A stretch of DNA of 64,000 bases from Escherichia coli (GTDB lineage: Bacteria; Pseudomonadota; Gammaproteobacteria; Enterobacterales; Enterobacteriaceae), in assembly GCF_003334335.1 (NCBI RefSeq), contig NZ_QOWQ01000003.1. One strand, given 5' to 3'. A program made the translations under genes and the position numbers. This document shows positions 1 through 13,158 of the stretch, piece after piece. The notes beneath the pieces were generated by a model. The model was not told where the DNA came from. It did no database searches and saw only the letters and a program-made list of their open reading frames with translations. The number at the start of each line of letters is the position of its first letter. The first letter of the stretch is position 1.

Positions 1-235
1 ACGCGAGGCATCGTCTTAACGAGGCACCGAGGCGTCGCATTCTTCAGATGGTTCAACCCTTAAGTTAGCGCTTATGGGGTCAGGTCTCCCCGTTCCGCAA
101 GCTGCCGCGATTTTTCCCGCCACTGCTTCACGGCGATATCATCCAGGTAGGCGGGGGCTTTCGGTGGTCTTGCCATGCTTATTTTTCGTCAGATTATTTT
201 TCAAAAAATTCCCGTGCATAAAAATTTGGGGAGGC

Positions 236-285
236 GTTCGGTGCCCGGCGGGGTCGGGTTTGTCCTGAAAACGCCCCCCACCCCG
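236..285. promoter_or_regulatory. GC-rich imperfect inverted repeat, candidate cos/packaging site
   Basis: GGGGAGGCGT ... ACGCCCCCC arms around GCCCGGCGGGGTCGGGTTTG core, flanked by AT-rich DNA, immediately downstream of the HNH gene. Confidence 0.25.
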
Positions 286-298
286 TCATACAGCCTCA

Positions 299-481
299 TC
301 AGCGATTGCGGAAACATTCCATAACCTCGCGGTCACGGTCGGTTAATCGCTTCGCTGTGATGCGTTCTGCGCGTCCTGACGCTTTATCTTTATGCCCTGT
401 TTCCTGTGTCTTCCATGCGTCACGCTGCCTTATAAGTCCACGGATAAGGCGGTTTTGTTCCCGCTCATTCATCAGCGTCAT
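299..481 (-). CDS. Hypothetical small protein (about 60 aa) overlapping the HNH stop
   Basis: ATG at 481-479 overlaps the last HNH codons; C-terminal LTDRDREVMECF stretch looks HTH-like; no convincing RBS. Confidence 0.25.
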   Translation of the reverse strand: MTLMNEREQNRLIRGLIRQRDAWKTQETGHKDKASGRAERITAKRLTDRDREVMECFRNR

Positions 482-905
482 ACATCCAGTTATTGCGGTT
501 AGCGGCCCGTTCTTCCTCTTCACGAAATCCACCTGCGGCACGCTTGCTTTTTGTTGCCGGATCAAGCCACTTCGTTTTCTGGTTATGACACGCCTGGCAC
601 AATGGCTGATGGTTCCATTCGGGCCAGAAGAGAACATCATCACCGCCATTAATCGGGATAATGTGATCCACCACCACGGCGGGCGTATATATCCCCTTCT
701 CAAGGCATCGCACGCATAACGGGTTTTTACTCAGATACATGGCGCGGTATTTTTCCCACTGTCTGGAGTACCCACGCGCGCGGCGGTGTCCTCGTCTGGC
801 ATCCTCTGCACGCCATGCCGCCCGCCTGTGCTCCTCACACTTGCCGGACTTAACGCGCCTGTTACAGCCTGGTTCTGTACATCGTCTTAATGGTTGCCAC
901 GGCAT
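465..905 (-). CDS. HNH endonuclease, phage packaging-associated
   Basis: 146 aa with Cys-rich N-terminus and DHIIP...H...N...CH...CH HNH-type motif; start overlaps connector stop (ATGA). Confidence 0.85.
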   Translation of the reverse strand: MPWQPLRRCTEPGCNRRVKSGKCEEHRRAAWRAEDARRGHRRARGYSRQWEKYRAMYLSKNPLCVRCLEKGIYTPAVVVDHIIPINGGDDVLFWPEWNHQPLCQACHNQKTKWLDPATKSKRAAGGFREEEERAANRNNWMYDADE

Positions 906-1201
906 CAGTACACCCCCACATCACGGTAAGCCGTCCAGAGCGCGCCAATCGTCATGGGTACGCGCGTTTTTGCGTTATCCGCTACCAGCTGGCGATTCTC
1001 GTACAGGTGAGCGATAAACATCATGCAGCCAATCTTTATGGCTGGCGTGAACTCCAGCCCGTCATCAAAGCGCCTGCCTATATGTATCTGGCACGCCTCA
1101 AGCGATGCGGCAATGTATCCGCTGATTAACTGGTCTTCCTCGTCGCCATCGATGCGGCAATGGAGTTTCACTTCTTCCAGGGTGATAAGTTCTTCTGTCA
1201 T
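905..1201 (-). CDS. Head-tail connector protein, gp6-like
   Basis: 98 aa, N-terminal ITLEEVKLHCRIDGDEEDQLI motif typical of gp6-like connector proteins; translationally coupled to neighbours. Confidence 0.8.
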   Translation of the reverse strand: MTEELITLEEVKLHCRIDGDEEDQLISGYIAASLEACQIHIGRRFDDGLEFTPAIKIGCMMFIAHLYENRQLVADNAKTRVPMTIGALWTAYRDVGVY

Positions 1202-1536
1202 TTTTCCGCGCCCTCACGACAAAGAATTTCAAGGCGTGTCCTGGCGGCATCCGGCAGCGGTTGCCCGATGATATTCAGTACACGCCCCGCCAGCGGCCCC
1301 GTACTGACCTTTATCCGGCTGGTGGCGTTGATGTCCTTCCGGTACCGTATCCAGATCCTTACGGTACCAATCGCCAGCTCTGCACCCGATGAAATGGCCT
1401 CCTTGCTGCTGATCATGTTCACGCTTGCCCAGAGTGTGTGACCGTCCTCCCACGTTTCGAGTATTTCGCCGGTTATATCCCTGGTCTGTTTCAGGGTCTG
1501 AATCGTTACCCTGTCACGCAGTCGCCCTATGTTCAT
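1198..1536 (-). CDS. Head closure / head-tail joining protein
   Basis: About 113 aa from ATG at 1536 overlapping portal stop; RVTIQ ... IRYR pattern of head-tail joining family. Confidence 0.7.
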   Translation of the reverse strand: MNIGRLRDRVTIQTLKQTRDITGEILETWEDGHTLWASVNMISSKEAISSGAELAIGTVRIWIRYRKDINATSRIKVSTGPLAGRVLNIIGQPLPDAARTRLEILCREGAEK

Positions 1537-2744
1537 TCCGGTTTTTCTCCCTCGCTGATTTTTACTTCCTGTTTCCATGCCTGGCTGAACTCATCACCAC
1601 CATCACGCGGGGACAGCCCTTCACGTTCGCGGGCTTCGTTCGGGCACATAACGCCGGATTTGATGCCGCGTTCATAGGTGGCAAAGCGTTCGCCAGGTGT
1701 GGCCCGTAACAGGTCCGCGCTGTCAAACTCCACCTGATACCGGATACCAGGTACAGGCGAGGCCACCAGCAGGGCGTTTTTTATCTGCTGCTCAAAGTTC
1801 GCCAGCCACGGGCGCATTGTCATGGTGAGAAATGCGCGGCTTGCCTCGCTGAAATTGCTGTAGGTGCTGTTGCTGTATTCCTGCAGAAAAATCGGCGAGA
1901 CGTTGAACATTCGGGCGATGTCTTCAATGGTGAAGCGACGGGAGGCCAGCCATTCAGCATCCTGATTACTCATGCCCAGCTGCTGATAGCTCATACCCCC
2001 TTCAAGGATGGGCGTTTTTCCGGCGTTTCTGGCCCCTTTGTAGCGTTCCAGTGCGGCTAATGCCTGTTTGCCCTTCACGCCGTCCAGCCATTCGCCTGAC
2101 GTGATAACCCCTGCCGCCATCATGCCATCACGCATCACGCTCGCGCCGTGGCGTTGTTGGGCCAGCCCAAGCCCCAGCGATTCGCGGCAGATGGTTACAG
2201 GTGAGCGCCCCATAAAACCGTCATCCGTGGAGTAACGAAGGTGGAGAACCTCCCACGGTAAATAGTTGCGGGTGTTTCCGGTGTAGGCGTCAGTGATGCA
2301 GTAGCGCCAGTTGTGTTCGCCTGTCTGCTCCACGTTCACCGACTGCGGCGGGTAAGGATGTAAAGCCACCGGAAAACCATCACGCCCCCACTGAATCACC
2401 GCATAAGCATTACCGTTTAACAGGCAGTGGCGGATCATCATTCGCTTAAACTGGTAGGGAGTCTGCCACGCGTTCGGGCGCTCGTTGAGGATGTGATCGA
2501 CCGGATGAGAATCAAGCCACTCGCGGGCCTCCTTCCCCTTCTCATTGCGTACCAGGTACAGGTAACACGGCATGGTAGCCACCGCCTCAGAGATGACCGT
2601 CACGGCGTTCATGACGGCGGGCAGTGATTCCGCTGTCCCCGATGATACGTACTCACCCGCCCCCGTGTTCGATGTGCCAGCCAGCGCCATAAATTCATCA
2701 AGCGTCATGCTGCGCTGCTCTTTTTTTCTTCTGAAAAGCCACAT
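1533..2744 (-). CDS. Phage portal protein, HK97 family
   Basis: 403 aa with portal-family conserved core; sits between protease and head-closure genes. Confidence 0.9.
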   Translation of the reverse strand: MWLFRRKKEQRSMTLDEFMALAGTSNTGAGEYVSSGTAESLPAVMNAVTVISEAVATMPCYLYLVRNEKGKEAREWLDSHPVDHILNERPNAWQTPYQFKRMMIRHCLLNGNAYAVIQWGRDGFPVALHPYPPQSVNVEQTGEHNWRYCITDAYTGNTRNYLPWEVLHLRYSTDDGFMGRSPVTICRESLGLGLAQQRHGASVMRDGMMAAGVITSGEWLDGVKGKQALAALERYKGARNAGKTPILEGGMSYQQLGMSNQDAEWLASRRFTIEDIARMFNVSPIFLQEYSNSTYSNFSEASRAFLTMTMRPWLANFEQQIKNALLVASPVPGIRYQVEFDSADLLRATPGERFATYERGIKSGVMCPNEAREREGLSPRDGGDEFSQAWKQEVKISEGEKPE

Positions 2745-2745
2745 A

Positions 2746-3303
2746 TCACACCCCCGCTAAATCCACCCACCAGCGGCGATTATCCGCACGCGGCATTTTT
2801 TCGGGGTGCTGCTCATACAGGGAACGGCGGGCCAGCTCCACGCCGGAATCGGGGTAAGCCGGTACCGATGTAACGGTAATTTCGTACAGTTCCGCCACCA
2901 GCACGGTGCGCACGCATGGATCTGTTGTGGTATCCCATACATCCTTACGGGAGCGAAAGCCAAAGCTCATCCCCGAGATGTCCCCACGCTTAACCAGTTC
3001 GATAACGTCGCGCCCTGTACTGGTATCCGGTGGGGTCAGTTCAAAGCGTAACCCTGTTTCGTCCTCTTCCAGTTTCAGCGTGCCGGAACGGGTACGCCCC
3101 AGCAACATGCTGTGGTCATGCTCATACAGGCCGCGAACGTCATTACCCGCCGCAAGCCATTCAGTAAACGCTCCCCGCTGGAATTTTTCGTAAAACTCCC
3201 CCCATAGCAGCTCTGAAAGCTTATCCCAGCGAACAACGTAGCCTGTAAGCGTGTTGCTGGCGCTGGTGGTGATTTCCGATGACCGGATTTCCATACTCTT
3301 CAT
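2746..3303 (-). CDS. Prohead (head maturation) protease, HK97 family
   Basis: About 185 aa; ORF track gives 2746..3318 but ATG at 3303 has the better RBS (GGGTGA); HK97 protease-like sequence. Confidence 0.85.
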   Translation of the reverse strand: MKSMEIRSSEITTSASNTLTGYVVRWDKLSELLWGEFYEKFQRGAFTEWLAAGNDVRGLYEHDHSMLLGRTRSGTLKLEEDETGLRFELTPPDTSTGRDVIELVKRGDISGMSFGFRSRKDVWDTTTDPCVRTVLVAELYEITVTSVPAYPDSGVELARRSLYEQHPEKMPRADNRRWWVDLAGV

Positions 3304-3318
3304 AATTTTTTCACCCAT

Positions 3319-3347
3319 AAAACACTAAAGGGGCTTTTAAGCCCCTT
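3319..3347 (-). terminator. Intercistronic hairpin/attenuator after major capsid gene
   Basis: AAGGGGC-loop-GCCCCTT stem followed by U-rich tract on minus strand between capsid stop and protease start. Confidence 0.5.
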
Positions 3348-3357
3348 CTGTATGCTG

Positions 3358-4515
3358 TTAATCGTCGTCCTGTGGCAGTTCCAGAATCTTGATCGCGTTC
3401 GAATCCACCACGCCACCGCCTAAATATTTCTGCGTGAAAATTTTGATGAAGCCCGGCTCTGTGAGGTTGTCCGGTCTGGTGCGAACACCTGTTTCGTGAT
3501 CAACAATGTAGTAACCGCGTTTGAAGTCACCCAGGGCAATAACGTTATCAGGCATAAACTCCAGATATTCGACCGGAAGGCCCAGCAACGTATCAGGATC
3601 ACCCGCCTGTAAACGGTCACGCCAGATGTAATCACCGTTCGCGTTCTTCACCTTCTGGAGTTTTGCCGCCGTCGTGGAGTTAACCACCCAGACCGCGTTT
3701 TTGCGGTATTTTTTACGTAATGCAAATTTCAGGTCGATCAGCGGGTCCGCAGATGTCCACGCCAGAGATTCGGAAGGTTTAATTACCTGCAACGTACCAA
3801 AATCACGCTCTTTGTCGTTCTTCTCTGCACGGGGTACGGATAAAAAGCCTTTTGCTTTTTTGTCACCGTCGCCCACAACCAGATCGCTTTCTTCGGTTTC
3901 CGTGAAGGTGTCGCCAATCTCGCCCGTCAGCCATGAAAGGATGTCCACATCGGAAAAATCCACGATTTCCTGTGTGGTGCGCGGGTACGCATAGACCGGA
4001 TACAGCTTAATGCTCACCTCGTTAATCTGCGGGGTGCTGGTCTGTTCGCGTGTCTTACCCTCTTCACCGTGGTTAACGGTCGCACCGCCAGCGGAAACAA
4101 GCTGCTTAAACTCGTTGCTGCTGATTTTCTTCACGGTACAGATGCGGCGCATGGTGGATTCATCCGTCAGCATTCGCATGATTTCGGTGTTCAGTTCGGG
4201 GATAACGGTATAACCACCATCAGCGGGAACGCCTGTACTTAATGCGCGGGTTTCACCTGTCAGGATGTAGTTGCGGAGTTCTGCCGGGTCAGTGGTCTGG
4301 CTGCTTTTACCTGGCTTGCTGCGCTCTTCGTCTGCAATGGCTTCAAGGCGGGAAATGTCTTTATCGAGGGATTCAGCTTTAGCGCGTAATTCGTCAAATG
4401 TTGCGCCCTCAGCATCGTTAAGACTGCGGTTTTCTTTTTCCGCGTTCTCCAGCATGTCGCGCATCTGATTTTTAATGGCGGTTTTCTGCTGGCGTAATTC
4501 GATTATTCTCGGCAT
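3358..4515 (-). CDS. Major capsid protein, HK97 fold, with N-terminal coiled-coil delta domain
   Basis: 385 aa; charged coiled-coil N-terminus then HK97-type capsid body; adjacent to prohead protease. Confidence 0.9.
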   Translation of the reverse strand: MPRIIELRQQKTAIKNQMRDMLENAEKENRSLNDAEGATFDELRAKAESLDKDISRLEAIADEERSKPGKSSQTTDPAELRNYILTGETRALSTGVPADGGYTVIPELNTEIMRMLTDESTMRRICTVKKISSNEFKQLVSAGGATVNHGEEGKTREQTSTPQINEVSIKLYPVYAYPRTTQEIVDFSDVDILSWLTGEIGDTFTETEESDLVVGDGDKKAKGFLSVPRAEKNDKERDFGTLQVIKPSESLAWTSADPLIDLKFALRKKYRKNAVWVVNSTTAAKLQKVKNANGDYIWRDRLQAGDPDTLLGLPVEYLEFMPDNVIALGDFKRGYYIVDHETGVRTRPDNLTEPGFIKIFTQKYLGGGVVDSNAIKILELPQDDD

Positions 4516-4522
4516 AAAAAAA

Positions 4523-4552
4523 GTCCTGGGGTTAAGTAAGGAACTCCAGGAC
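4523..4552 (-). promoter_or_regulatory. Hairpin plus U-run immediately 5' of capsid start codon
   Basis: GTCCTGG ... CCAGGAC stem (7 bp, about 16 nt loop) followed by TTTTTTT then ATG; no canonical SD at normal spacing. Confidence 0.35.
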
Positions 4553-4729
4553 GCGGCAAAAACTCAACCGTTTTTCATAAGGAAATCAGCAATCGCACCG
4601 ATCGTTTTCCCGCCTGGTAATGAATATTGGCGAGAACATTAACAGGCGGAAAAGTGGCCCCAGCGTCCTGGCACCACGGGCGAGAATAATCATGATTCAG
4701 TTCGGGTAAAATATGCCGATCCTGTCAGT

Positions 4730-4756
4730 GAACAACGTGGAACAACCGCGAACAAA
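4730..4756. promoter_or_regulatory. Three GAACAAC direct repeats at 10-bp phasing upstream of head operon
   Basis: gAACAACgtg gAACAACcgc gAACAAAtaa on plus strand (GTTGTTC on the transcribed minus strand), about 215 bp upstream of capsid start. Confidence 0.45.
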
Positions 4757-4761
4757 TAATT

Positions 4762-4796
4762 TACAAAAAATGACAAAAAGCCGGATTGCTCCGGCT
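4762..4796 (-). terminator. Rho-independent terminator after small cargo gene
   Basis: GCCGGAgcaaTCCGGC hairpin followed by TTTTTGTCATTTTTTG on minus strand. Confidence 0.7.
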
Positions 4797-4806
4797 GTAT
4801 GCGTGC

Positions 4807-5031
4807 TCAGTCCCTGATCCCTTTCAGAAATTCTATCAATGCATCTATCTGTTCAGGATTTACCGCCAGCATTTCACCGGACAGAGCACATCTCACAAAA
4901 CCATGCTGATCCTTTTCAATCAGTGCGCCCGTCTCCAGGAATGCGCGGTAATCATTGATGCTCATCGTCTCCATGTTGTCAGCATGGTATTTATCACGCT
5001 GTTTTAATATCTCATCAAATTTCATCGGCAT
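4807..5031 (-). CDS. Hypothetical protein, 74 aa, terminator-bounded cargo (moron-like) gene
   Basis: ATG at 5031 with GAGGAA RBS; terminators on both sides; no recognisable family. Confidence 0.55.
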   Translation of the reverse strand: MPMKFDEILKQRDKYHADNMETMSINDYRAFLETGALIEKDQHGFVRCALSGEMLAVNPEQIDALIEFLKGIRD

Positions 5032-5123
5032 TGTTTTTTCCTCTGTTGTGTCTGTTTGTTTCAGATAGTAACTATGCCTGACCGTGACGAAAACCCGGTA
5101 ATGCGCCATACCGTTTCAACTGG

Positions 5124-5149
5124 TGCAAAAAAAGCCGGATTTCTCCGGC
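5124..5149 (-). terminator. Rho-independent terminator ending the early/replication operon
   Basis: GCCGGAgaaaTCCGGC hairpin followed by TTTTTTT on minus strand; near-identical to hairpin at 4780-4795. Confidence 0.7.
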
Positions 5150-5156
5150 TGTGTGA

Positions 5157-5429
5157 TTAGCTGTCCTGGTAATTTCGCCATATTTCATCACCAGCACCAT
5201 CCATACCCATTTCGGCATAAGTGCGATCGACCGCCTTTTTCAGGTCTCCGTAATTATCCGGCGGCTCCGGTGGCCTCTGTGCCTTCCTGGAACATTCCAG
5301 CCGTCGCATCGTAACCTGATGCCGTTCCTTGTCTGTCTCCACCAGCAGCATGACTTCACCCCATCGCGCCGACGCCCTCCGGTAAAAGCCTTTTGCCTCG
5401 AGTTCCTCCGCTATGCGGTCATGTACCAT
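5157..5429 (-). CDS. Hypothetical protein, 90 aa
   Basis: ATG at 5429 with strong RBS (GAGGGGGTGA), 10 nt after SSB stop; no recognisable family. Confidence 0.55.
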   Translation of the reverse strand: MVHDRIAEELEAKGFYRRASARWGEVMLLVETDKERHQVTMRRLECSRKAQRPPEPPDNYGDLKKAVDRTYAEMGMDGAGDEIWRNYQDS

Positions 5430-5439
5430 CGTCACCCCC

Positions 5440-5850
5440 TCAGAACGGAATATCATCACCGTAGGGGTCATCGTCTCCCGCTGGTGGCTGATTACCCTGT
5501 GTGCCTGTGGTTTTGCGTCTGTTCCCGCCAGGACGTGCCGCACGGGCACTGATTACGCTGTCTGCAATAACCTGATACCCCTGTCGTGTTTCCCCGTTCT
5601 GTCCGGTCCACTGGCTTACCTGCATCGTGCCGGATACGCTGGCAACATCGCCTTTTTGATGTTTAGCCAGGAAATCGGCCTGTTTGCCAAATGCGATAAC
5701 CGATAACCATAACGTCGCCTGTCCGTCATGTGCTTGGCTGCATGGCAACGATACCGCCATACGCGCCAGAGTCATCGGTGTGCCCTTGCTGCTCTGTTTT
5801 ACCAGCGGGTCGTCCACCAGGCGCCCGTAAGCTGCAATTTGTGCTGTCAT
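5440..5850 (-). CDS. ssb: Single-stranded DNA-binding protein
   Basis: 136 aa; OB-fold region aligns with E. coli SSB; Gly/Gln-rich linker and acidic C-terminal tip ending DDIPF. Confidence 0.85.
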   Translation of the reverse strand: MTAQIAAYGRLVDDPLVKQSSKGTPMTLARMAVSLPCSQAHDGQATLWLSVIAFGKQADFLAKHQKGDVASVSGTMQVSQWTGQNGETRQGYQVIADSVISARAARPGGNRRKTTGTQGNQPPAGDDDPYGDDIPF

Positions 5851-5859
5851 ATTGCCACC

Positions 5860-6165
5860 TCAGTGAAGCGATCCGGCGTTGTTCTTTTTCATCTCTTCCA
5901 TCATTTTTTCAGTGAGCATTACGCACTGAAAACCCATGTTTTTGATGTCTACGGGTTTCATGCCTTTGTCAGTGGATATCACAGGCAGAATATCCTGATA
6001 CACATCGCGGTCAGGGTAACTAAGCACACAAAGCGCCCATGATGCCACGGGTGAGGATCCTTCGTCTGTTTCAACCCACCAGCCTGGTGTAGCTGCGCTT
6101 ATTTGCTGAATCGTGATCCGTCCGTTGTGCTTGTAAAGTTTTTCACCAAATTTTGGTTCGCTCAT
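5860..6165 (-). CDS. Hypothetical protein, 101 aa
   Basis: Start overlaps upstream gene stop (ATGA); operon context; no recognisable family. Confidence 0.5.
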   Translation of the reverse strand: MSEPKFGEKLYKHNGRITIQQISAATPGWWVETDEGSSPVASWALCVLSYPDRDVYQDILPVISTDKGMKPVDIKNMGFQCVMLTEKMMEEMKKNNAGSLH

Positions 6166-6413
6166 GATTCCAACTCTCCGGTTTTAACGTTGATTGTTGT
6201 TACCTGTTCCGCTTCGGCAATCTCACGTTCTGTCAGCGTGGCAAAGTTTGCCGCTGCTGTGGTCATGAATGCGCTTATCAGGTCGGGATGTTCTTTCGCG
6301 TATCCTTCCCCCGCGTGGCGGTCTATCGTTCTGATTGCCACCTTTAAGGCGTGCTCTGTCATGTCTAACGCTTTATATTTTGGCTCTGTTCTGTCTCTGT
6401 GTTTTTGAGTCAT
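6162..6413 (-). CDS. Hypothetical protein, about 84 aa
   Basis: ORF track gives 6162..6545 but that N-terminal extension runs through the iteron array; ATG at 6413 has GAGGTG RBS. Confidence 0.45.
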   Translation of the reverse strand: MTQKHRDRTEPKYKALDMTEHALKVAIRTIDRHAGEGYAKEHPDLISAFMTTAAANFATLTEREIAEAEQVTTINVKTGELES

Positions 6414-6620
6414 TTGCCCACCTCTACCCACTTTTTTCGCCCACTTTTTACGTTTTCCCACTTCGTCCAACGTGGGAAATTTGGGATTTATATCATCTTG
6501 TTTCATAGGTATTTTTTTAGTGCCCACTTTTTGGGATATATACACGTGGGAAAGTGGGTAATTTTGTTAAAATTACGTTAAATCGCCCACCTTTCCCACT
6601 TTTAATGCCCACTTTTTACA
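6414..6620. repeat. Candidate replication origin: iteron array around an AT-rich spacer
   Basis: At least 10 copies of (G/T)CCCAC(T)n / GTGGGAAA in both orientations flanking an AT-rich segment (about 6478-6518), directly 3' of the replication protein gene. Confidence 0.6.
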
Positions 6621-8013
6621 GTGGTCCTACATCATCACCGTCAATGTAGATCACGTCGTCTTTTTCCAGTTTGGCTAACCATCGTTTAAGGTGTTTTGTG
6701 TCATACCCCAGCTTTTTCATATCGTCACGTAACAGCGGGATCGTGCACTTGTCGCCGTGCTGTGTGCGTGAACGTATGCACCCCCATAGCGCGGTATGGT
6801 TTTCCGTCTTGTTGCCTGCCTCCTCGATGCGCTCCAGTTCAACGGGAGGGCGCGGCTTATCCACCACCACCAGCGACGTGATTAACTCCCCGTCAGCGTC
6901 GGTAAAAAGCTCCACCACCCGCAAATCATAGGCAGCCTCTTTGAGTTCCTCCGCGTCCTTCATTTTGGTGCATGAGATAACCAGCGCTTCGCTTCCTGCG
7001 TCCTCCCTGCGTATCCGGTATTCAGCATCCAGCGAAGCACGAAATGCACTGGAACCGCGCGCGCCTTTCGTCTCATCCTTGCCGGAATGGTGAACCACCA
7101 GCACCGTGGCCCCTGTGCGCCGTTTAAGCTCGTCACACCCACGGATAAACGCCCCCATATCACGGGAATCATTTTCATCATTGCCACCAAAGCAACGCGC
7201 CAGAGTATCAAGAATAATCATGCGTACAGGTTTACCCGTTTCCCGCTCCACCTGACGGGCAGCGATAACCAGTTCATCAACATCAAGCGGGACAGCCGGA
7301 AAAACTGGACGGTTTACCAGATACAGATTTTTCACCTGCTCACCGTGCACAACCTCCCAGGCTTTTACACGACGCGGAACGCCGATACCGCCTTCACCAA
7401 CCACATAGAGAACAGCGCCATGCGCCACCCTGCGGCCTCCCCACTGGCGGCCCGTGGAAACGTGACACGCCCACGAACCCGCAAGGAATGATTTATAGGA
7501 ACCGCTTGCCCCGTATATGCTGCATAGCGACGATGCCGGAATAATCCCCTTTACCACGTAATCTAATTGCGTGTCGTATCCGGCAGATCCAACGCTCATC
7601 GGTAGCGTGGTTTTTCGCTGGTGGTGTTCTTCCCCTGGCTTTTTCCCCCGCTCCCGTTCCAGATATTCGCGCCAGTTCTCCCGCTTCTGGCTGTGTATCC
7701 CTTCGGGGTAATAATTCGCATCAGTTACGCCCGCCGCCGCCAGCTTGTGCGCAATGGCATTAATATTTGATGGCCTGATGTGGCCTGCCTTGTACAGCCG
7801 GACACAATAGCGCCCCTCGTCGATGATTCTCAGGTCTGCCAGTTCATCCAGTTGATCATCAGCCAGCACAATGGGAGGCACATTATCGCCAGCCAGTCGC
7901 CCGTCCTGTTCCTGCCACTGTTTCGCATGTGCCCACGCATCACTACCCGCAAAAATGATGACTTCGGTCATCTTGTCGTAAGGCTGTTTTTTTAAGTTCG
8001 GTGCGCTTTTCAT
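6616..8013 (-). CDS. Satellite replication protein, RecA/DnaB-like P-loop ATPase with N-terminal extension
   Basis: 465 aa; Walker A GASGSYKS and ILDTLARCFGG...VHHSGK helicase-like motifs; followed by the iteron array. Confidence 0.85.
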   Translation of the reverse strand: MKSAPNLKKQPYDKMTEVIIFAGSDAWAHAKQWQEQDGRLAGDNVPPIVLADDQLDELADLRIIDEGRYCVRLYKAGHIRPSNINAIAHKLAAAGVTDANYYPEGIHSQKRENWREYLERERGKKPGEEHHQRKTTLPMSVGSAGYDTQLDYVVKGIIPASSLCSIYGASGSYKSFLAGSWACHVSTGRQWGGRRVAHGAVLYVVGEGGIGVPRRVKAWEVVHGEQVKNLYLVNRPVFPAVPLDVDELVIAARQVERETGKPVRMIILDTLARCFGGNDENDSRDMGAFIRGCDELKRRTGATVLVVHHSGKDETKGARGSSAFRASLDAEYRIRREDAGSEALVISCTKMKDAEELKEAAYDLRVVELFTDADGELITSLVVVDKPRPPVELERIEEAGNKTENHTALWGCIRSRTQHGDKCTIPLLRDDMKKLGYDTKHLKRWLAKLEKDDVIYIDGDDVGPL

Positions 8014-8309
8014 TTCTTGCCCCTGAATCCGTTAATCATGTTTTTCATCTTCTGAATATTGGCGCGTGCTTTCTCCCTGCTGGTGGGCACGTTACGCGGT
8101 ACGGCCTGCACCAGAGAAAAATCACGCCGGAACTGATAAACAGGCATCACGCAATCATATTCGTAACTTTCACGACGGTAGGTTACGCGCCGTTCCTCCA
8201 CGCCCTTAATCATTACCGTGCCGCCGTACTGGTCGCGGTAAATATCACCGCGCGTAAATTTAGGGTGAGTGTTGCCACTGGCAGTTAAGCCAGAATATTT
8301 AAGTTTCAT
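8010..8309 (-). CDS. Hypothetical protein, 99 aa
   Basis: ATG with GGAG RBS; stop overlaps rep start. Confidence 0.5.
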   Translation of the reverse strand: MKLKYSGLTASGNTHPKFTRGDIYRDQYGGTVMIKGVEERRVTYRRESYEYDCVMPVYQFRRDFSLVQAVPRNVPTSREKARANIQKMKNMINGFRGKK

Positions 8310-8314
8310 TATTT

Positions 8315-8548
8315 TTATTCTCCGGTGTGCTGTTCGTTATATCTGTCGTGCAATGTCTCTATTTCTTGTAGTTCCATTATTACAGGCTCAAGAAGCGTTA
8401 TTAATGCCGTGACAATTCTTGATTTTTGTTTGTCGCGTTCATTGTCGCCAAGTGTTTCAAGCCATATGCGCAATATTTCCAGCATGTTTTCACTGTGAGA
8501 AAGTGCAAGAAATACGCGTTCTGTTGTTTCGTGGTAAATATCACGCAT
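8315..8548 (-). CDS. Hypothetical protein, 77 aa
   Basis: ATG at 8548 with GAGGA RBS; operon context. Confidence 0.5.
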   Translation of the reverse strand: MRDIYHETTERVFLALSHSENMLEILRIWLETLGDNERDKQKSRIVTALITLLEPVIMELQEIETLHDRYNEQHTGE

Positions 8549-8620
8549 GGCTTACATCCTCAGGAAATTTTCTTCTGTAACGCGCCTCTGCCACATATTC
8601 CGCATAATCGGCGGCGATAT

Positions 8621-8773
8621 TCAGTACATCAAGCCCGTTGATTTATATTCTCTCGTGGAAAGTAAGAAAAAAGCCGCTCTAATAAGTTCTGGCATTGACG
8701 AAAGCGCATCAGCCGCATCATCAGGAACGCCGGAAAATTCTTGTTTCAGGGAATTAAAACGATCATCACGCAT
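8621..8773 (-). CDS. Hypothetical small protein, about 50 aa
   Basis: ATG at 8773 preceded by GGGGGG RBS; overlaps upstream gene stop by 8 nt. Confidence 0.3.
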   Translation of the reverse strand: MRDDRFNSLKQEFSGVPDDAADALSSMPELIRAAFFLLSTREYKSTGLMY

Positions 8774-8996
8774 AACCCCCCCCATTTTCACAATCAGCAA
8801 CAAGAATATTTTTAGCGTCATTCAGCGACCGCGTTGCGGTGTATCGGATACATTCCAGGGCGAATAGTGTGTATTCTTCCCTTTCTTCCCTTTCTTCCTT
8901 TTGTGCAAGCTCTGCTGTGCATTCAATATCAATAAGCGCGTGCATCAGCGTAGTGAGTGCGGCGGCGGCTGCGTCCGGTGTGGTTTTATTGCACAT
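8766..8996 (-). CDS. Hypothetical protein, about 76 aa, acidic Glu-rich segment
   Basis: ATG at 8996 overlapping the stop of the upstream gene. Confidence 0.4.
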   Translation of the reverse strand: MCNKTTPDAAAAALTTLMHALIDIECTAELAQKEEREEREEYTLFALECIRYTATRSLNDAKNILVADCENGGGYA

Positions 8997-9216
8997 GTAC
9001 CCCTCCGCATTTTTTTTCGTTAGAAATAAGCGTTCTTCTTTCCTGTTCATCGATCAGGAATACGCAGACCTCACCGCTAAGGCGTTTAAGTAAGCCGATG
9101 ATTGCCCCTGATTCGCTGTCGGTCATCATGCCTGGGTAATCCTCTGCCAGTGCGCAAATAACTTCGATTTGGTGGGCGCGTTCTGCTGCCTGTTGTAGTG
9201 TGATTTCCTGGCTCAT
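8986..9216 (-). CDS. Hypothetical protein, 76 aa
   Basis: ATG at 9216 overlapping stop of upstream ORF (ATGA). Confidence 0.5.
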   Translation of the reverse strand: MSQEITLQQAAERAHQIEVICALAEDYPGMMTDSESGAIIGLLKRLSGEVCVFLIDEQERRTLISNEKKCGGVHVQ

Positions 9217-9413
9217 AAGCCTACCCCCTGACGAATACGGGCAGCGAATACCATCACGCAGCCAGCCGGGGATTGCAGGCGTGCTTCCTGTTCGCTGGTG
9301 GCCTCAATGGTAATCACGCGCGGTTGTGCAGTGCTCAGGGCGATAAAACGCCAAATGTATTTATTCAGGTTGTGCGAGTCCCGCCCTTGCGGGTGTGTGG
9401 TATGATTTCTCAT
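9213..9413 (-). CDS. Hypothetical protein, 66 aa, first gene of leftward operon
   Basis: ATG at 9413 with GAGGTAG RBS; this is the only plausible part of the spurious 340-aa ORF 9213..10235. Confidence 0.45.
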   Translation of the reverse strand: MRNHTTHPQGRDSHNLNKYIWRFIALSTAQPRVITIEATSEQEARLQSPAGCVMVFAARIRQGVGL

Positions 9414-9508
9414 AGCTACCTCGATACTCTCGTTATCGTTGGTGGTTAGAAGCCCGGTTAGTGTTAGCGCACTGCCGGGTTTCGTCGTTTCTGCACCTTG
9501 CGCCAACA

Positions 9509-9566
9509 AGGTGTTGAACACCAATTTAAACCCAGGTGTTAAACACGTCAAGTGTTGAACACTTAT
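9509..9566. promoter_or_regulatory. Three palindromic operators in divergent promoter region
   Basis: GGTGTTGAACACC, GGTGTTAAACAC and AGTGTTGAACACT; last one contains TTGAAC -35 candidate with CATACT -10 about 17 bp downstream for the RHH gene. Confidence 0.5.
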
Positions 9567-9612
9567 TTTTTTTCCTGCATACTGCATTTGTTTTTTATGA
9601 GGGGTACACCAC

Positions 9613-9792
9613 ATGGCGACAAAAGCAGTAAACGCAAAATCACAAACCGTTGCGGCAAGGGTTCCGCATGAAGTTATGAACAATGTTGAGGCGGTAAAAA
9701 TGCCTGGCGAAAGTACGGGGCAATTTGTTACTGCAGCATTAAAACGAGAAGTTGAATATCGCCAGCGGCGCAAGGCCAAAGAACCAGAGTAA
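9613..9792 (+). CDS. Ribbon-helix-helix DNA-binding protein, 59 aa, candidate satellite repressor
   Basis: Not in ORF track (below 60 aa); ATG with GAGGGG RBS; AARVPHEV beta-strand then helices, typical Arc/CopG-like pattern. Confidence 0.55.
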   Translation: MATKAVNAKSQTVAARVPHEVMNNVEAVKMPGESTGQFVTAALKREVEYRQRRKAKEPE

Positions 9793-9834
9793 TCACCATC
9801 AGCGCCGTGGTGTAAGGTATTACGGCGCATTGCT

Positions 9835-10023
9835 ATGCAGGACAACACAATGACCGATAAAGAATTGACCAAAACATTATCACCGGCACGGAAAAGACGG
9901 CGCAGAAAGATAGAGCATGAATCAGAAAGATTCGCGCCATGTGCTTTTGCCCTTGAGCAATTCCTTAAAGAGTACAGGGAAAAGCGCTCATTGCAGGTAT
10001 GGCAACGAACTGAACCAGACTGA
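9835..10023 (+). CDS. Hypothetical small basic protein, 62 aa
   Basis: Lies between the RHH gene and a plus-strand terminator in the same transcription unit; weak RBS. Confidence 0.35.
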   Translation: MQDNTMTDKELTKTLSPARKRRRRKIEHESERFAPCAFALEQFLKEYREKRSLQVWQRTEPD

Positions 10024-10116
10024 TAGCATTGCCCACCAGCCTGATAGCGACTATCATTGCCGTTCTTATGTTTGGGATCACACACACAAACGGCGCAGCG
10101 GGTTATCTGTTCAGAA

Positions 10117-10148
10117 AGGCGGCTCCATTTCGGGGCCGCTTTTTTTAT
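10117..10148 (+). terminator. Rho-independent terminator of the RHH operon
   Basis: GCGGC...GCCGC hairpin followed by TTTTTTTT. Confidence 0.65.
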
Positions 10149-10292
10149 ACCTGAAAAACCCCAATTTTGTTGTTTTTCAGTTTCACCAGGGCGAACGAAT
10201 CCCCGCCCACGTTCTGGCGTATATTCAATCTTCATGGTTATAGCTCTGTGTTCAGATGATTGATGTGTGGCGGCTGCGTGCCGCCAGCGTGA

Positions 10293-10481
10293 TTAATGAA
10301 CTGCCTTGCAGCTATCCTTCCAGGCCAGAACCTCGGATAAAGACCAGCCAACGGAACGACCGCCAAGTTTACGACGTGATGGGAATTGTCCGGCCTTTTC
10401 CAGGCGGTAGCGACACGTACGGCTAAGGCCGGTTAGTTTTTCGCATTCTTTTTCACGTATAAACCGATCAGTGCTTAACAC
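10293..10481 (-). CDS. alpA: AlpA-family transcriptional regulator/excisionase
   Basis: GTG start at 10481 with strong RBS (AAGGGGGG); ORF track extends to a TTG at 10562; EKLTGLSRTCRYRLEKAGQFP HTH typical of AlpA. Confidence 0.75.
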   Translation of the reverse strand: MLSTDRFIREKECEKLTGLSRTCRYRLEKAGQFPSRRKLGGRSVGWSLSEVLAWKDSCKAVH

Positions 10482-10631
10482 TATTGCCCCCCTTTCGTTT
10501 CTTAAAGAGTCATCAGGTGTCTTATTGTGTCGTATTGTTCCCGCTAGAGTGATGAATGGCAAATATTGAGGATGTATTATTTACAGAAAATGAAACAGTA
10601 AGAATAAAATCTTTTAAATTCATGTTAATAC

Positions 10632-10666
10632 AAAGGCATAAAATATTGTTTCATGCCTTTTTTTTC
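10632..10666 (+). terminator. Hairpin plus T8 terminator in int-alpA spacer
   Basis: GGCAT...ATGCC stem followed by TTTTTTTT on plus strand. Confidence 0.45.
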
Positions 10667-10754
10667 GCTCTTTAAAGAGTGATTCGCTAGTGTATAAAAA
10701 ACCAGTGACACATTAAAAATCAGCCACTTATAAATCTGTATGCTTTTTCGCCTC

Positions 10755-10810
10755 TTGTTCGTGGTTGTTCCACATTGTTGCTCATTGTTGCACGTTGTAT
10801 CTGTTCGCAT
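10755..10810. promoter_or_regulatory. Five to six TTGTT(C/G) direct repeats at 10-bp phasing
   Basis: cTTGTTCgtgg TTGTTCcaca TTGTTGctca TTGTTGcacg TTGTATctg TTCGC between int stop and alpA; same motif as at 4730-4756. Confidence 0.45.
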
Positions 10811-10846
10811 ATCCAGTATGCGCATACTGAAAAAACACGAAAAAAA

Positions 10847-12064
10847 TTATTTTCTTCTGGCTACGGGTAGCGTGGTTACGTTTTCATGTGTTCCCGCCAG
10901 TATCCCTAACCGCTCCGTCCACATATCCAGCGCATTGCGTTTAGCATCCAGATAACGGGAATGATTATAAACTCGCTGCATTCCTGGCATCTGGTGGCCT
11001 GTAAGCTGCTCCACGACATGCGGATCAACGCCTAAATCGTTCAGCATGGTTGTAAAGGTGCGCCGGATGTCATGCAGTGACCAGTGAGGATGATTAAGCC
11101 TCCTGTGCGCTAATCTTCCATACTGCGATACGCTGGCCTCCTGTTTCACTTCCCCCAGCAATAAGCCCGTGTGCCTGTTCTGCTCCACCAGCTGCGTGAC
11201 GAACGGCAGGATCGCTTCCGGTATGGGCCGGAATATTGCGACCTTCGTTTTGCTGTGCTCCTTCGGAACGGTCCATAGCATTTCCGTAAAATCCCACTCC
11301 CCGATCTCCGATAACCTCAGTTCTACCGTTCTGGCTCCGAAGACAATCAGGAGGCGGATTAACGCGACGTAGTAAGGGGAGAATATTTTTTTGTCCAGTG
11401 CCTGCAATAATTCGCCAAGTTCTTTGTTACTTAAGACACGTTCGCTTATATCCGGTTTTTTCCCAACGTCCGCCACGTTCAGATCGTCCAGAACGTTGCT
11501 GATTGCATAGCGCCGCCTACGGCAGAACTTAAGCGCCTGTTTGCACGCCTGTAGCACGAATCCGGCAGTAACAGGCGTTCGCTTTGCCACCTGGTCAAAA
11601 CAGGCCAGCCAGTGCCGTAGCTCGCATTTATCCAGCGGCATAGCACCAATCTGCTGTATTACGTGATTATTAAGTCGCCTTTTCAGGGCGATATAATCCA
11701 CGCGGTTTTCCTTTACGTAATACTCAAGCCAGTAGGTGAGCGCATCGCCAACCGTTACGGGCTTTAACGCTTCCTGTACGGTGTAATTCATCTCATGACG
11801 TGGATTTTTCCCCTCAGCCAGCCATGTGCGACACTGTGCGGCTTTTTCCCTGGCTGCTTTCAGGCTCAGATCAGGATAACTTCCCAGCTTAATGCGTTCG
11901 GGTCGTGTCTCCCTTCCCGTTCCGGCCCTGTATGTGAAATACCAGGTCAATTTCCCTGATGTTAAATATTTCACGCTCAGGTTTCCGCCATCACTATAAA
12001 ACGTGTTTTTCTCCGCTGGCTTACCATGAAGTTTCCTTAGCAAGGTATCGCTCAGTTTGTTCAT
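10847..12064 (-). CDS. int: Tyrosine integrase, P4-like
   Basis: About 405 aa from ATG at 12064 (ORF track starts at a GTG at 12076); P4-type N-terminal arm-binding region and C-terminal catalytic region with HDIRRTF and trailing Tyr; next to insertion junction. Confidence 0.9.
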   Translation of the reverse strand: MNKLSDTLLRKLHGKPAEKNTFYSDGGNLSVKYLTSGKLTWYFTYRAGTGRETRPERIKLGSYPDLSLKAAREKAAQCRTWLAEGKNPRHEMNYTVQEALKPVTVGDALTYWLEYYVKENRVDYIALKRRLNNHVIQQIGAMPLDKCELRHWLACFDQVAKRTPVTAGFVLQACKQALKFCRRRRYAISNVLDDLNVADVGKKPDISERVLSNKELGELLQALDKKIFSPYYVALIRLLIVFGARTVELRLSEIGEWDFTEMLWTVPKEHSKTKVAIFRPIPEAILPFVTQLVEQNRHTGLLLGEVKQEASVSQYGRLAHRRLNHPHWSLHDIRRTFTTMLNDLGVDPHVVEQLTGHQMPGMQRVYNHSRYLDAKRNALDMWTERLGILAGTHENVTTLPVARRK

Positions 12065-12100
12065 TGCTCTGCTCACGTTTTACCCCCTCTTTACGAAAAA

Positions 12101-12123
12101 GTGACTACACCAGTGACTACACC
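12101..12123. repeat. Tandem direct repeat (A)GTGACTACACC x2 between int and insertion junction
   Basis: Two adjacent copies seen directly in sequence; candidate integrase arm-type site or promoter element. Confidence 0.35.
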
Positions 12124-12252
12124 GATCGTTGCACAAAGGGCTACAACGTGAAACAAGCTGGAACAAGGAAAATCACAAATCTGTTGATAATCAAAAACAT
12201 AATGCACAGCCTGAAACATTATGAAACAGCAAAAAACACTAAATGATAAAAT

Positions 12253-13158
12253 GCTGTTATTCTTAACCCGCTGGTGCAACACATGGTCCGCTGGCGTGTG
12301 CCGCGTGTACTGGCGGTGTCGATTTTGATGACCATCATCGTGATGGCGATGGTGTTGCTATTAGCTTATCTGGGTTCCGCGCTCAACGAGTTGACGCGGA
12401 CGTTACCGCAATATCGCAACTCTATTATGACGCCGCTGCAAGCGCTTGAAGCGTTGTTGCAACGCGTAGGGATTGACGTCTCAGTTGACCAGCTGGCGCA
12501 TTATATTGATCCGAACGCGGCGATGACGTTGCTCACCAACTTATTGACGCAGTTATCTAATGCCATGTCATCAATATTTTTATTGCTGCTGACGGTGCTG
12601 TTTATGCTGCTCGAAGTGCCACAATTGCCCGGAAAATTTCAGCAAATGATGGCGCGTCCGGTTGAAGGGATGGCGGCGATTCAACGTGCGATTGACAGTG
12701 TTTCTCATTATCTGGTGCTGAAAACAGCCATCAGCATCATCACCGGCCTGGTCGCCTGGGCGATGCTCGCCGCACTCGATGTTCGCTTCGCTTTTGTCTG
12801 GGGATTGCTGGCCTTTGCGCTTAATTACATCCCGAATATTGGTTCAGTCCTCGCGGCAATCCCCCCTATCGCTCAGGTACTGGTGTTTAATGGCTTCTAC
12901 GAAGCGTTGCTGGTGCTGGCGGGATATCTGCTGATTAATCTGGTCTTCGGCAATATTCTGGAGCCGCGTATCATGGGGCGTGGGCTGGGGCTTTCCACAT
13001 TGGTGGTATTTTTGTCGTTGATTTTTTGGGGATGGTTGTTAGGACCGGTGGGTATGCTGCTTTCCGTGCCGTTGACAATTATTGTCAAAATTGCGCTTGA
13101 ACAAACAGCGGGAGGTCAAAGCATCGCCGTTCTGTTAAGCGATCTCAATAAAGAGTGA
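12253..13158 (+). pseudogene. tqsA: tqsA (AI-2 exporter) 3' fragment, 5' end displaced by the satellite
   Basis: Protein matches TqsA from about residue 50 onward; in-frame TAA immediately upstream at the junction; only GTG/ATG internal starts remain. Confidence 0.8.

Follow-up and report, generated by a model that had tools for sequence, protein, structure and literature searches.

The window, i.e. the whole 64,000-nucleotide stretch of Escherichia coli DNA analysed here, begins inside an island integrated at tqsA. The island carries int, alpA, genes for a RepA-type replicase, an SSB and a PerC-like protein, and genes for a major head protein, a protease and a portal, and this gene content identifies it as a capsid-forming PICI (cf-PICI). 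The tyrosine integrase gene int (10847-12076; phrog_1, 7e-72), the gene of an alpA-like excisionase/regulator (10293..10562, minus strand; phrog_2790, 8e-18) and the replicase gene follow one another in this order on the same strand, which is the PICI core. The capsid and packaging set of a cf-PICI comprises major capsid, protease, portal, connectors, HNH, TerS and TerL, with no tail genes; on the head side the window holds the major head protein, protease and portal genes, while the terminase end lies outside it, and the homologous island in tqsA of E. coli 6883 is annotated with the full set and without tail genes. The genes between alpA and the end of the replicase gene form the early operon of the island, for regulation and replication. 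A PICI/P4-type context had been proposed in the preliminary description, and it is borne out by the cf-PICI genes and by the place of the operon, which is that of the P4 left operon, home of the derepression gene epsilon. The module was matched in 1821 of 5426 complete E. coli genomes, about one third, and a genome can have up to six copies of it. Both PICIs and their capsid-forming relatives are very common in this species. In overall gene set and order the island resembles the EcCIEDL933-type elements (Sakai Sp7 / EDL933 CP-933C, O-island 51), of which Sp7/CP-933C is, judging from size and gene content, probably the published EcCIEDL933 itself, although Sp7 is integrated at ycdF-phoQ and not at tqsA. 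PICI induction is AlpA-dependent; helper-phage induction and transfer of this class have been demonstrated for EcCIEDL933 only, which does not interfere with its own helper.

Directly before the replicase gene rep, six ORFs of 50-99 aa occupy 8010-9413 of the minus strand exactly as first described, each preceded by a Shine-Dalgarno (SD)-like sequence, in agreement with the reasonable ribosome-binding sites noted earlier. They are ORFs beyond chance, as all six match PHROG families (E 1e-15 to 2e-44), and the exact proteins are found on 3 to >999 public contigs. The overlapping stop and start codons ascribed to the chain are present at four of the six junctions, ORF6/rep included, namely ORF1/2 (4 nt, ATGA), ORF2/3 (11 nt), ORF3/4 (8 nt) and ORF6/rep (4 nt, ATGA), but not at ORF4/5 and ORF5/6, which are separated by gaps of 72 nt and 5 nt; in intact relatives, the ORF3-4 gene overlaps ORF5 as well. 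Two statements of the preliminary description had to be revised. The count of six genes becomes five before rep, with ORF3 and ORF4 as the two parts of a single gene (phrog_2512; the relatives have 144-155 aa), and the genes are not all unrecognisable, as ORF1 matches NF033153 (69 bits) and ORF6 is a relative of RgdR that matches Pfam DUF4222 (7.7e-23). Of the checks that it had suggested, homology searches recognised ORF1 and ORF6 and found no Pfam or PDB relative of ORF2 and ORF5, and structure prediction gave an ORF3-4 model of low confidence.

ORF1 (9213..9413, minus strand; 66 aa), hereafter also icd, is an Icd-like and P4 Kil-like leader gene, the first one behind the proximal promoter, with a GAGG SD located 5 nt upstream of its ATG. 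It belongs to the family NF033153 (‘host cell division inhibitor Icd-like’) with a score of 69.1 bits against a cut-off of 25, and matches phrog_6196 at 2e-44 and phrog_1743 at 1.8e-22. P4 Eta/Kil is matched by the same models, NF033153 (73.9 bits) and phrog_1743, and by this sequence evidence ORF1 is a homologue of P4 Kil. In P4, eta contains a constitutive promoter, Kil is a truncated Eta, and termination is prevented when the full Eta is translated from the upstream promoter; kil, a leader gene, kills cells, and read-through is controlled by its translation (PMC10111431). A comparable nesting is seen in the island, where the frame of icd is open for 340 codons (9213..10235, minus strand), from just after the alpA stop, which is the first stop met upstream in this frame, to the icd stop, so that ORF1 forms its end and a promoter-like site (9551-9523) lies within it. 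The frame stays open across divergent relatives as well: over the 600 nt that precede the icd ATG in 57 distinct relatives, the icd frame has on average 1.5 stops per 200 codons versus 12-13 in the other two frames, and it lacked any stop in 40 of the 57 distinct upstream regions and in 8 of 13 very divergent ones. The exact 340-aa protein, named Icd-like at NCBI, is found on 47 contigs. Several features weigh against a role of the long ORF: its SD is weak, 58 nt separate its start from the alpA stop, its N-terminal extension does not resemble a folded protein and matched no family, and a real YlcI/YnfO-family gene runs antisense within it. By analogy, this ORF may be the counterpart of P4 eta, and the icd frame kept open back to alpA could represent a P4-like translational gate. 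In Sakai Sp7, by contrast, the long upstream ORF is not fused to icd but runs in another frame and ends 25 nt before it.

The proximal promoter, internal to the 340-codon ORF, was identified by a promoter scan as a sigma-70-like site (TTGACG / 17 nt / TAAATT; 9523..9551, minus strand), whose TTGAC is 98-100% conserved across loci. Its -35 and -10 are bracketed by three 13-nt repeats, AGGTGTTGAACAC (9509..9562; family D1 of the repeat search), each a GTGTTnAACAC palindrome and thus a candidate operator. Divergently from the operon, and antisense within the long ORF, lies a YlcI/YnfO-family gene of 59 aa (9613..9792, plus strand; NF041551, 59.7 bits; phrog_949, 8.6e-22), whose exact protein is present on >1000 contigs and which is a candidate regulator of the proximal promoter.

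At the start of icd, the plus strand encodes a candidate cis-antisense RNA of ∼80 nt (9414..9493), composed of two hairpins and a U-rich tail and complementary to the icd leader and its SD; our literature search found no description of such a SymR-like antisense RNA at icd. The Rfam SymR model (RF01809) aligns to it with 33 bits (E 0.0011), which does not reach the gathering score of 61, and an Rfam scan at the gathering threshold returned no SymR match. The fold is supported by the relatives: 94% of the alignment cells are paired versus 35-53% when the partners are slid, helix 2 shows double (compensatory) changes in 10 of its 14 pairs, and RNAalifold returned the same fold as the covariation alignment. 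A covariance model built here (R1) gives 93 bits for the copy in the window and matches nowhere else in it; all its matches are antisense and at an icd start, including 79 of a second set of 80 loci, in which the one locus without a match (L131) has its sequence cut at that start. R1 also found the RNA in Sakai Sp7 (37.7 bits), antisense and touching the icd start, but does not retrieve K-12 symR. A putative extended -10 for its transcription, TGgTATGAT (9398..9406, plus strand), lies within icd codons 3-5, with the TATGAT box (9401-9406) 7 nt from the predicted start at 9414. This -10 is kept in 42 distinct variants, and TATGAT + 7 nt + A is kept also in the divergent Sakai-type group, even though the Icd-like protein of Sp7 and ORF1 are just 53% identical.

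The same hairpins might instead act in the sense leader, as an attenuator or as a processed RNA like the P4 CI RNA, with no antisense RNA made. The complementary strand does fold, but more weakly (-20.5 kcal/mol, z -2.5, versus -35.1 kcal/mol, z -5.5, of the plus strand), and P4 offers the precedent of a processed sense-strand RNA; the C4, isrK and c4-a1b1 models, however, returned nothing for 7900-10900 at E up to 5, nor did C4/CI, isrK and c4-target searches in Sakai Sp7, while the same kind of scan recovered all three in P4 (74.9, 60.8 and 44.1 bits). The strand itself is further indicated by the G-U pairs, about 88 of 598 cells, which would be mismatches on the other strand, by the U-rich tail found behind each hairpin variant, by the well-spaced -10 and by the SymR-model match, all favouring the plus strand, so a sense-leader function appears highly improbable. 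Hairpin 2 of the window was not flagged by a simple terminator scan, because its tail has just 4 T in 8.

The antisense RNA resembles SymR of the K-12 SymE/SymR system, which is type I toxin-antitoxin-like, in several respects: a length of ∼80 versus 77 nt, two hairpins joined by a UUAG linker, a partly common apical sequence (GUGUU-GCGCAC), coverage of the SD, a promoter in the first codons of the target ORF and the same distance from -10 to start. The layout predicted from these features is thus of SymR type, i.e. cis-antisense to the 5′ end and SD of the target with a candidate promoter inside the target ORF. The targets differ, since SymE has an AbrB fold while the target here is an Icd/Kil-family gene heading a replication operon, and no sign of LexA control was seen at the antisense-RNA locus, unlike at symE/symR.

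The gene identities, the anatomy of the locus, the conserved, strand-biased RNA structure and the open frame point to a scheme in which the early operon of this cf-PICI, organised like the P4 left operon, is gated at icd jointly by the antisense RNA and the long ORF, and to which we give an about even chance. Driven by the -10 within codons 3-5, the ∼80-nt RNA would begin one base before the icd AUG and be complementary to the icd leader and SD throughout. While the island rests, this RNA would be made and would repress, blocking icd translation on transcripts of the operator-flanked proximal promoter; since overlapping stop and start codons chain the genes, polarity and lost coupling would carry the block as far as rep. 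Once a helper phage turns on alpA, transcripts would come from farther upstream and be translated through the 340-codon ORF ending in icd, and the elongating ribosomes would relieve the block by rendering these transcripts insensitive to the antisense RNA, so that all genes of the chain, down to and including rep, would be expressed. Such a gate would follow the logic of P4 kil/eta but use a SymR-like cis-antisense RNA where P4 uses its CI RNA.

The P4 left operon consists of the alpA homologue orf88, eta with nested kil, CI RNA, epsilon, orf151, orf106 and alpha, and shares with the island the succession of an alpA-like gene, a long ORF whose last ∼65 codons are a separate Icd/Kil gene behind an internal promoter, small genes and a replicase. 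Unlike P4, the island has no C4/CI RNA or seqA/seqC-type targets but a cis-antisense RNA at the kil/icd start, its small downstream genes are unrelated to epsilon, orf151 and orf106, its replicase is a RepA-type helicase and not the alpha primase-helicase, and it makes its own capsids, as known here from the genes. In immI of P1 (c4 RNA, icd, ant), too, the first ORF of an operon is a small one of the Icd family, and its translation, and thereby the downstream genes, is under the control of an antisense-type RNA. The P1 c4 RNA belongs to the C4 family and acts in trans after processing, whereas the operon in the window holds no C4-family RNA and has other downstream genes. The published account of PICI induction stops at AlpA, and the gate, if real, would be the missing step from alpA to replication; PICIs would then share P4-type translational immunity but base it on another RNA, and an island could be switched on simply by silent mutations of a single -10 box.

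The Icd-like protein could also be a growth-arresting toxin that is held down by the antisense RNA in a type I-like toxin-antitoxin or abortive-infection system, either stabilising the island or, with linked genes, killing the cell once the balance is upset by an invading phage. The family is indeed named for P1 Icd, a division inhibitor, P4 Kil kills cells, and an antisense promoter within the toxin ORF recalls SymE/SymR; on the other hand, none of the ten proteins searched matched a PADLOC protein model at E up to 0.01, any toxicity of the 66-aa ORF1 product is putative, and any identity of the ECOR61 system with this operon would be tentative. We regard such a system as possible but doubtful, and as compatible with the gate and not exclusive of it.

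Between icd and the DUF4222 gene lie ORF2 (8986..9216; 76 aa; phrog_1478), which overlaps ORF1 by ATGA, ORF3 (8766..8996; 76 aa; phrog_2512 / phrog_5146), ORF4 (8621..8773; 50 aa) and ORF5 (8315..8548; 77 aa; phrog_2196), all on the minus strand. For ORF2 and ORF5, neither of which has a Pfam or PDB relative, Sakai encodes ECs_1579 of the same family and ECs_1580 of a related family, respectively. ORF3 and ORF4 are the N- and C-terminal halves of one gene of ∼150 aa, split here at a poly-G tract that is G8 on the coding strand (8776..8783, minus strand) and varies in length among relatives. In 25 copies with near-identical flanks, G7 (6 copies) and G10 (4) give a fused ORF, while G8 (12) and G9 (3) give a split one; the fused proteins, 144-155 aa long and represented by hundreds of deposited sequences, have GG or GGG at the tract, i.e. 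their in-frame lengths are one Gly codon apart, and their most conserved part spans the junction. The copy in the window carries a second lesion, a 1-nt deletion near 8630 in ORF4 (TTGATG versus TTGGATG in the relative L003), which leaves 54 codons after the G tract versus 77-82 elsewhere and accounts for the ORF4 truncation and the 72-nt ORF4/5 gap; with two frame disruptions, the gene is probably dispensable. Alternatively, the tract differences could be sequencing or assembly errors and ORF3 and ORF4 two separate small genes, given that homopolymers are error-prone, that each half has its own PHROG family (phrog_5146, phrog_24341), that the split 76-aa form is on >1000 contigs and that the G run could serve as SD of ORF4. 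Four tract lengths amid near-identical flanks, the spacing by one Gly codon in so many fused proteins and the conservation of the junction argue against this, and we consider it unlikely. A homopolymer-switched gene is unusual among E. coli mobile elements.

Family, domain and structure searches gave no functional clue for ORF2, ORF3-4 or ORF5. These middle genes are mosaic, present or absent or 30-100% identical among loci, and are flanked by the almost invariant icd and the conserved DUF4222-rep junction. Genes in conflict with phages typically show such a pattern, and together with the switch-like G tract, the position shared with epsilon, orf151 and orf106 of P4, and a preprint report that a linked ‘Icd-like ... 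primase’ gene set kills cells upon a phage accessory gene, it would fit the proposal that at least these three genes encode factors that sense or manipulate the helper, like epsilon in P4. Yet they share no PHROG family with the three P4 genes, PADLOC, Pfam and PDB searches returned nothing for them, the structure predicted for ORF3-4 is a low-confidence helical bundle of generic type, and this gene is doubly frame-disrupted in the window. Moreover, the published induction acts through AlpA, EcCIEDL933 spares its helper, and the identifiable genes have other documented roles, i.e. P4 Kil in leader control and killing and RgdR in host LEE and motility control, so a helper-directed role seems rather improbable to us.

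Extending the gate beyond this island, we tentatively suggest, as a conjecture that may well prove wrong, that a SymR-like RNA with an eta/kil-type frame is the immunity switch of many enterobacterial PICIs, with specificity classes set by loop and stem, that symE/symR is a domesticated relative and that the G-tract gene is phase-variable. If this were true, the classes would be set apart by the loop of hairpin 1, which is variable, and by the fully exchanged stems of hairpin 2, and co-resident islands would be spared cross-repression, much as with plasmid copy-control RNAs.

The last two genes of the chain are ORF6 (8010..8309, minus strand; 99 aa) and rep (6616..8013, minus strand; 465 aa; phrog_2850, 3.5e-255), a RepA-family helicase gene whose homologue is named ‘helicase RepA family protein’ in RefSeq. 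ORF6 carries DUF4222 (PF13973; i-Evalue 7.7e-23, residues 16-68) and is 84% identical over all 99 residues to RgdR (ECs1581), a prophage regulator of EHEC O157:H7 that activates LEE1 and represses motility. The two share the TRGD motif and the position directly upstream of the replicase, and the RGD motif, of which R20 is needed for RgdR activity, is intact in ORF6 (KFTRGDIY, R20-G21-D22), although the host of the window's island may have no LEE. RgdR, hitherto known only as an EHEC virulence regulator, is thereby placed in its native setting, as the product of a gene coupled to a satellite replicase. Deleting rgdR produces a phenotype in EHEC even without induction, so the distal operon genes are not fully silent, a point against the gate. 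It is conceivable, but in our estimate not probable, that the replicase has the DUF4222 protein, and perhaps the products of adjacent genes, as partners in loading, origin choice or a link to RNA polymerase, and that the host effects of RgdR are side effects. In Sp7 the order is the icd-like ECs_1577, the ORF2-family ECs_1579, the ORF5-family ECs_1580, RgdR ECs_1581 and the replicase; unlike the island, Sp7 has ECs_1578 (phrog_3672) and no ORF3-4 gene, and its replicase is a 710-aa primase.

The six small minus-strand ORFs upstream of the replicase gene rep make up an operon that is built on the P4 plan, sits in a capsid-forming PICI and has a candidate control RNA of another kind. They comprise ORF1 (icd, 9413..9213, 66 aa), ORF2 (9216..8986, 76 aa), ORF3 (8996..8766, 76 aa), ORF4 (8773..8621, 50 aa), ORF5 (8548..8315, 77 aa) and ORF6 (8309..8010, 99 aa, an RgdR-like DUF4222 protein), and are followed directly by rep (8013..6616, minus strand). 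Because each of the six matched a PHROG family (E-values from 1e-15 to 2e-44) and the exact proteins were found on 3 to >999 public contigs, they are not chance ORFs. The preliminary description, which had placed six translationally coupled, unrecognisable small genes here, was partly confirmed in its observation and partly supported in its interpretation: its limits of 8010-9413 fit the minus-strand ORFs exactly, but ORF3 and ORF4 belong together as one gene; a Shine-Dalgarno-like sequence was present at each ORF and stop and start codons overlap at four junctions (ATGA at ORF1/2 and ORF6/rep, 11 nt at ORF2/3 and 8 nt at ORF3/4), but ORF5/6 and ORF4/5 are separated, by 5 and 72 nt, respectively.

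That ORF3 and ORF4 are one gene, as their sequences indicate, was seen from PHROG 2512 (154 aa), which spans both (ORF3 on positions 1-76 and ORF4 on 63-126), and from the RefSeq label 'frameshifted' on the homologue; the joined gene is called ORF3-4 below. The two halves meet at a G8 tract (8776-8783), whose length in 25 copies with near-identical flanks was G7 in six, G8 in 12 (the window included), G9 in three and G10 in four; G7 and G10 give a single ORF of ~150 aa, while G8 and G9 give split ORFs. Hundreds of fused proteins of 144-155 aa are deposited, with GG or GGG at the tract position and with the junction as their best-conserved part, and the split 76-aa form occurs on >1000 contigs. 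The tract appears to behave like a hypermutable switch between one product of ~150 aa and two halves, and sequencing error, as a source of the length variation, is the weaker alternative. Programmed ribosomal frameshifting and transcriptional slippage were considered separately and, from a reading of the sequence, set aside: the ORF4 frame would have to be reached by a +1 shift, and the tract is not followed by a slow codon. A 1-nt deletion near 8630 (TTGATG here, TTGGATG in the related locus L003) further damages the window copy, which has therefore lost the last 28 residues and gained the 72-nt ORF4/5 gap; in intact relatives the ORF3-4 gene overlaps ORF5. The exact truncated 50-aa allele (deletion at window 8621-8640) was found on 92 public contigs, Shigella flexneri among them; the truncation is thus inherited and not a read error.

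ORF1 scored 69 bits against the NCBIfam model NF033153, 'host cell division inhibitor Icd-like' (cut-off 25), and matched phrog_6196 and phrog_1743; the P4 'cI ORF', now eta with kil nested at its end, scored 73.9 bits with the same NF033153 over residues 85-132 of 138 and also matched phrog_1743. ORF1 is thus apparently the counterpart of P4 kil, a link that holds at the level of shared profile models, because ORF1 and P4 Eta showed no significant similarity in a direct BLASTP comparison (E 0.29). A tblastn search of 50,697 phage records with ORF1 gave one weak match, to neither P1 nor P4. In P4, eta harbours a constitutive promoter and Kil is a truncated form of Eta, while full Eta is made only from an upstream late promoter, coupled to the alpA homologue (PMC10111431).

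The same arrangement of a nested frame with an internal promoter-like site was seen here. The icd frame is open for 340 codons (9213-10235, minus strand), with the alpA stop as its first upstream stop, and the exact 340-aa product was found on 47 contigs under the NCBI name 'Icd-like'. In 57 distinct relatives, the 600-nt stretch ahead of the icd ATG averaged 1.5 stops per 200 codons in this frame, versus 12-13 in the other two; the frame was stop-free in 40 of the 57 relatives and in 8 of 13 representatives sharing almost no sequence. At the start of the long ORF (first 50 codons), too few synonymous and non-synonymous changes were counted to show selection on its protein sequence either way. 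Inside the long ORF lies a promoter-like site (TTGACG, 17 nt, TAAATT; 9551-9523, minus strand), bracketed by three 13-nt repeats, AGGTGTTGAACAC, at 9509-9562, and a divergent, antisense YlcI/YnfO-family gene (9613-9792, plus strand), whose product is a candidate repressor. A GC-rich hairpin (GGCGGC acgca GCCGCC) was noted at ~10270-10290 on the minus strand, between the alpA stop, which it directly follows, and the first long-ORF ATG, and in some related loci (for example L041) the long frame opens with a BRO-N-like antirepressor-type sequence.

The operon head appears to carry a conserved candidate antisense RNA. No P4/P1-type C4/CI RNA was found, with P4 as the positive control, and the Rfam scan of the whole window at the gathering threshold gave no match; the permissive scan yielded one notable match, to SymR, at 9414-9486 on the plus strand (33 bits against a gathering score of 61, E 0.0011). 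The candidate, a SymR-like cis-antisense RNA at 9414-9493 (plus strand), lies opposite the ORF1 leader and its ribosome-binding site. Among loci, the block 9225-9456 is nearly invariant with sharply diverging flanks, and just past it is a hairpin whose stem is swapped wholesale between loci with pairing preserved. In 23 distinct sequences, a two-hairpin structure had 94% of cells paired, versus 35-53% with slid partners; helix 2 showed both-side changes in 10 of 14 pairs, the terminator hairpin had many compensatory changes, and RNAalifold returned the same fold. The strand is indicated by G-U pairs in ~88 of 598 cells, which are mismatches on the opposite strand, and by a fold energy of -35.1 kcal/mol (z -5.5) on the plus strand against -20.5 on the minus strand. 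A U-rich tail follows every hairpin variant, and hairpin 2 went unflagged in the simple terminator scan. Within icd codons 3-5 there is a TGgTATGAT putative promoter box (9398-9406, plus strand), 7 nt from 9414, with which the promoter and start of K-12 symR align, the two RNAs sharing the same plan.

A covariance model built from the antisense-RNA sequences of these loci scored 37.7 bits in the Sakai prophage Sp7 and also found the RNA at the icd start in 79 of 80 further loci of a second Icd group, whose protein is only 53% identical; the exception, L131, is cut at the icd start. Every match was antisense and in contact with the icd start; the second group retains the TATGAT box. K-12 symR was not retrieved by the model, and we therefore call the RNA SymR-like and claim no membership of the SymR family; no description of it was found in the literature searched. 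Seven loci (L112, L135, L144, L147, L148, L149 and L161) hold a tandem double icd-plus-RNA module, with the second copy ~750 nt upstream of the main one, and RefSeq lists 'Icd-like protein (x2)' in genomes with such modules.

From these features, we propose that the antisense RNA and the eta-like long ORF may act as a gate. In the resting island, transcripts started at the proximal promoter would be bound at their leader by the RNA, which would block icd translation, and the overlapping codons that chain the genes would carry the block down to rep; when a helper induces alpA, longer transcripts would be translated through the eta-like ORF, escape the RNA and so permit expression of the whole chain. 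A toxin-antitoxin or abortive-infection function is compatible with such a gate. Against the gate stand the weak ribosome-binding site of the long ORF, 58 nt after alpA, its extension, which does not look like a protein and matched no family, the upstream ORF of Sp7, which is in another frame than icd, and the rgdR phenotype reported in the literature for uninduced cells. A promoter-like site with a TG-extended -10 was observed inside ORF5 (8376-8404, minus strand), upstream of the rgdR-like gene, and could be a reason for rgdR activity in uninduced cells.

The island itself is widespread, similar DNA being found in 1821 of 5426 complete E. coli genomes at up to six places per genome. The homologous region of E. 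coli 6883, an insertion in tqsA without tail genes, is annotated with an integrase, an HTH regulator, a YlcI/YnfO protein, an Icd-like protein, hypotheticals, a DUF4222 protein, a RepA-family helicase, SSB, a PerC-family regulator, capsid, protease, portal, connectors, HNH and terminase, and profile searches of the window confirmed the integrase, an AlpA-like regulator, SSB, a PerC-like activator, the major head protein, protease and portal. This is the gene set of capsid-forming PICIs as described for EcCIEDL933, in which alpA is needed for induction according to the literature. Here the island (window 1-12250) is inserted in tqsA (fragment at 12274-13158), adjoining pntB; the window begins within it, so the terminase end is not visible and, like the second attachment site, lies outside.

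The preliminary description had also suggested that these genes sense or manipulate the helper. For ORF2, ORF3-4 and ORF5 helper sensing is possible, but nothing computed supports it. These three had no Pfam match, the PADLOC search of the proteins gave none, and PDB sequence searches with ORF1, ORF2, ORF3-4, ORF5, ORF6 and the YlcI-like protein returned nothing meaningful. For fused ORF3-4, AlphaFold gave a helical bundle of low confidence (pLDDT 66), and Foldseek matched it to generic helical bundles only, with no significant structural match. No PHROG family is common to ORF2-ORF6 and P4 epsilon, orf151 or orf106, and Sp7 has family members of ORF2 (ECs_1579) and ORF5 (ECs_1580). The middle genes vary in a mosaic fashion across 80 IMG/VR loci, being absent from some and 30-100% identical where they occur, and are flanked by an almost invariant icd on one side and the DUF4222-rep junction on the other. 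A replication-accessory role of the DUF4222 protein would agree with its fixed gene position. The N-terminal ~125 residues of rep (first ~125 codons, window 7640-8013) are 58-94% conserved across different replicase bodies, a RepA-type helicase here and a 710-aa primase in Sp7, and form with DUF4222 a conserved junction block. All DUF4222/RgdR-type proteins compared in the alignment share an almost invariant N-terminal motif, SG(L/F)TASG (window 8264-8294, ORF6 residues 6-12), upstream of the Pfam domain in a region that the model predicts to be disordered.
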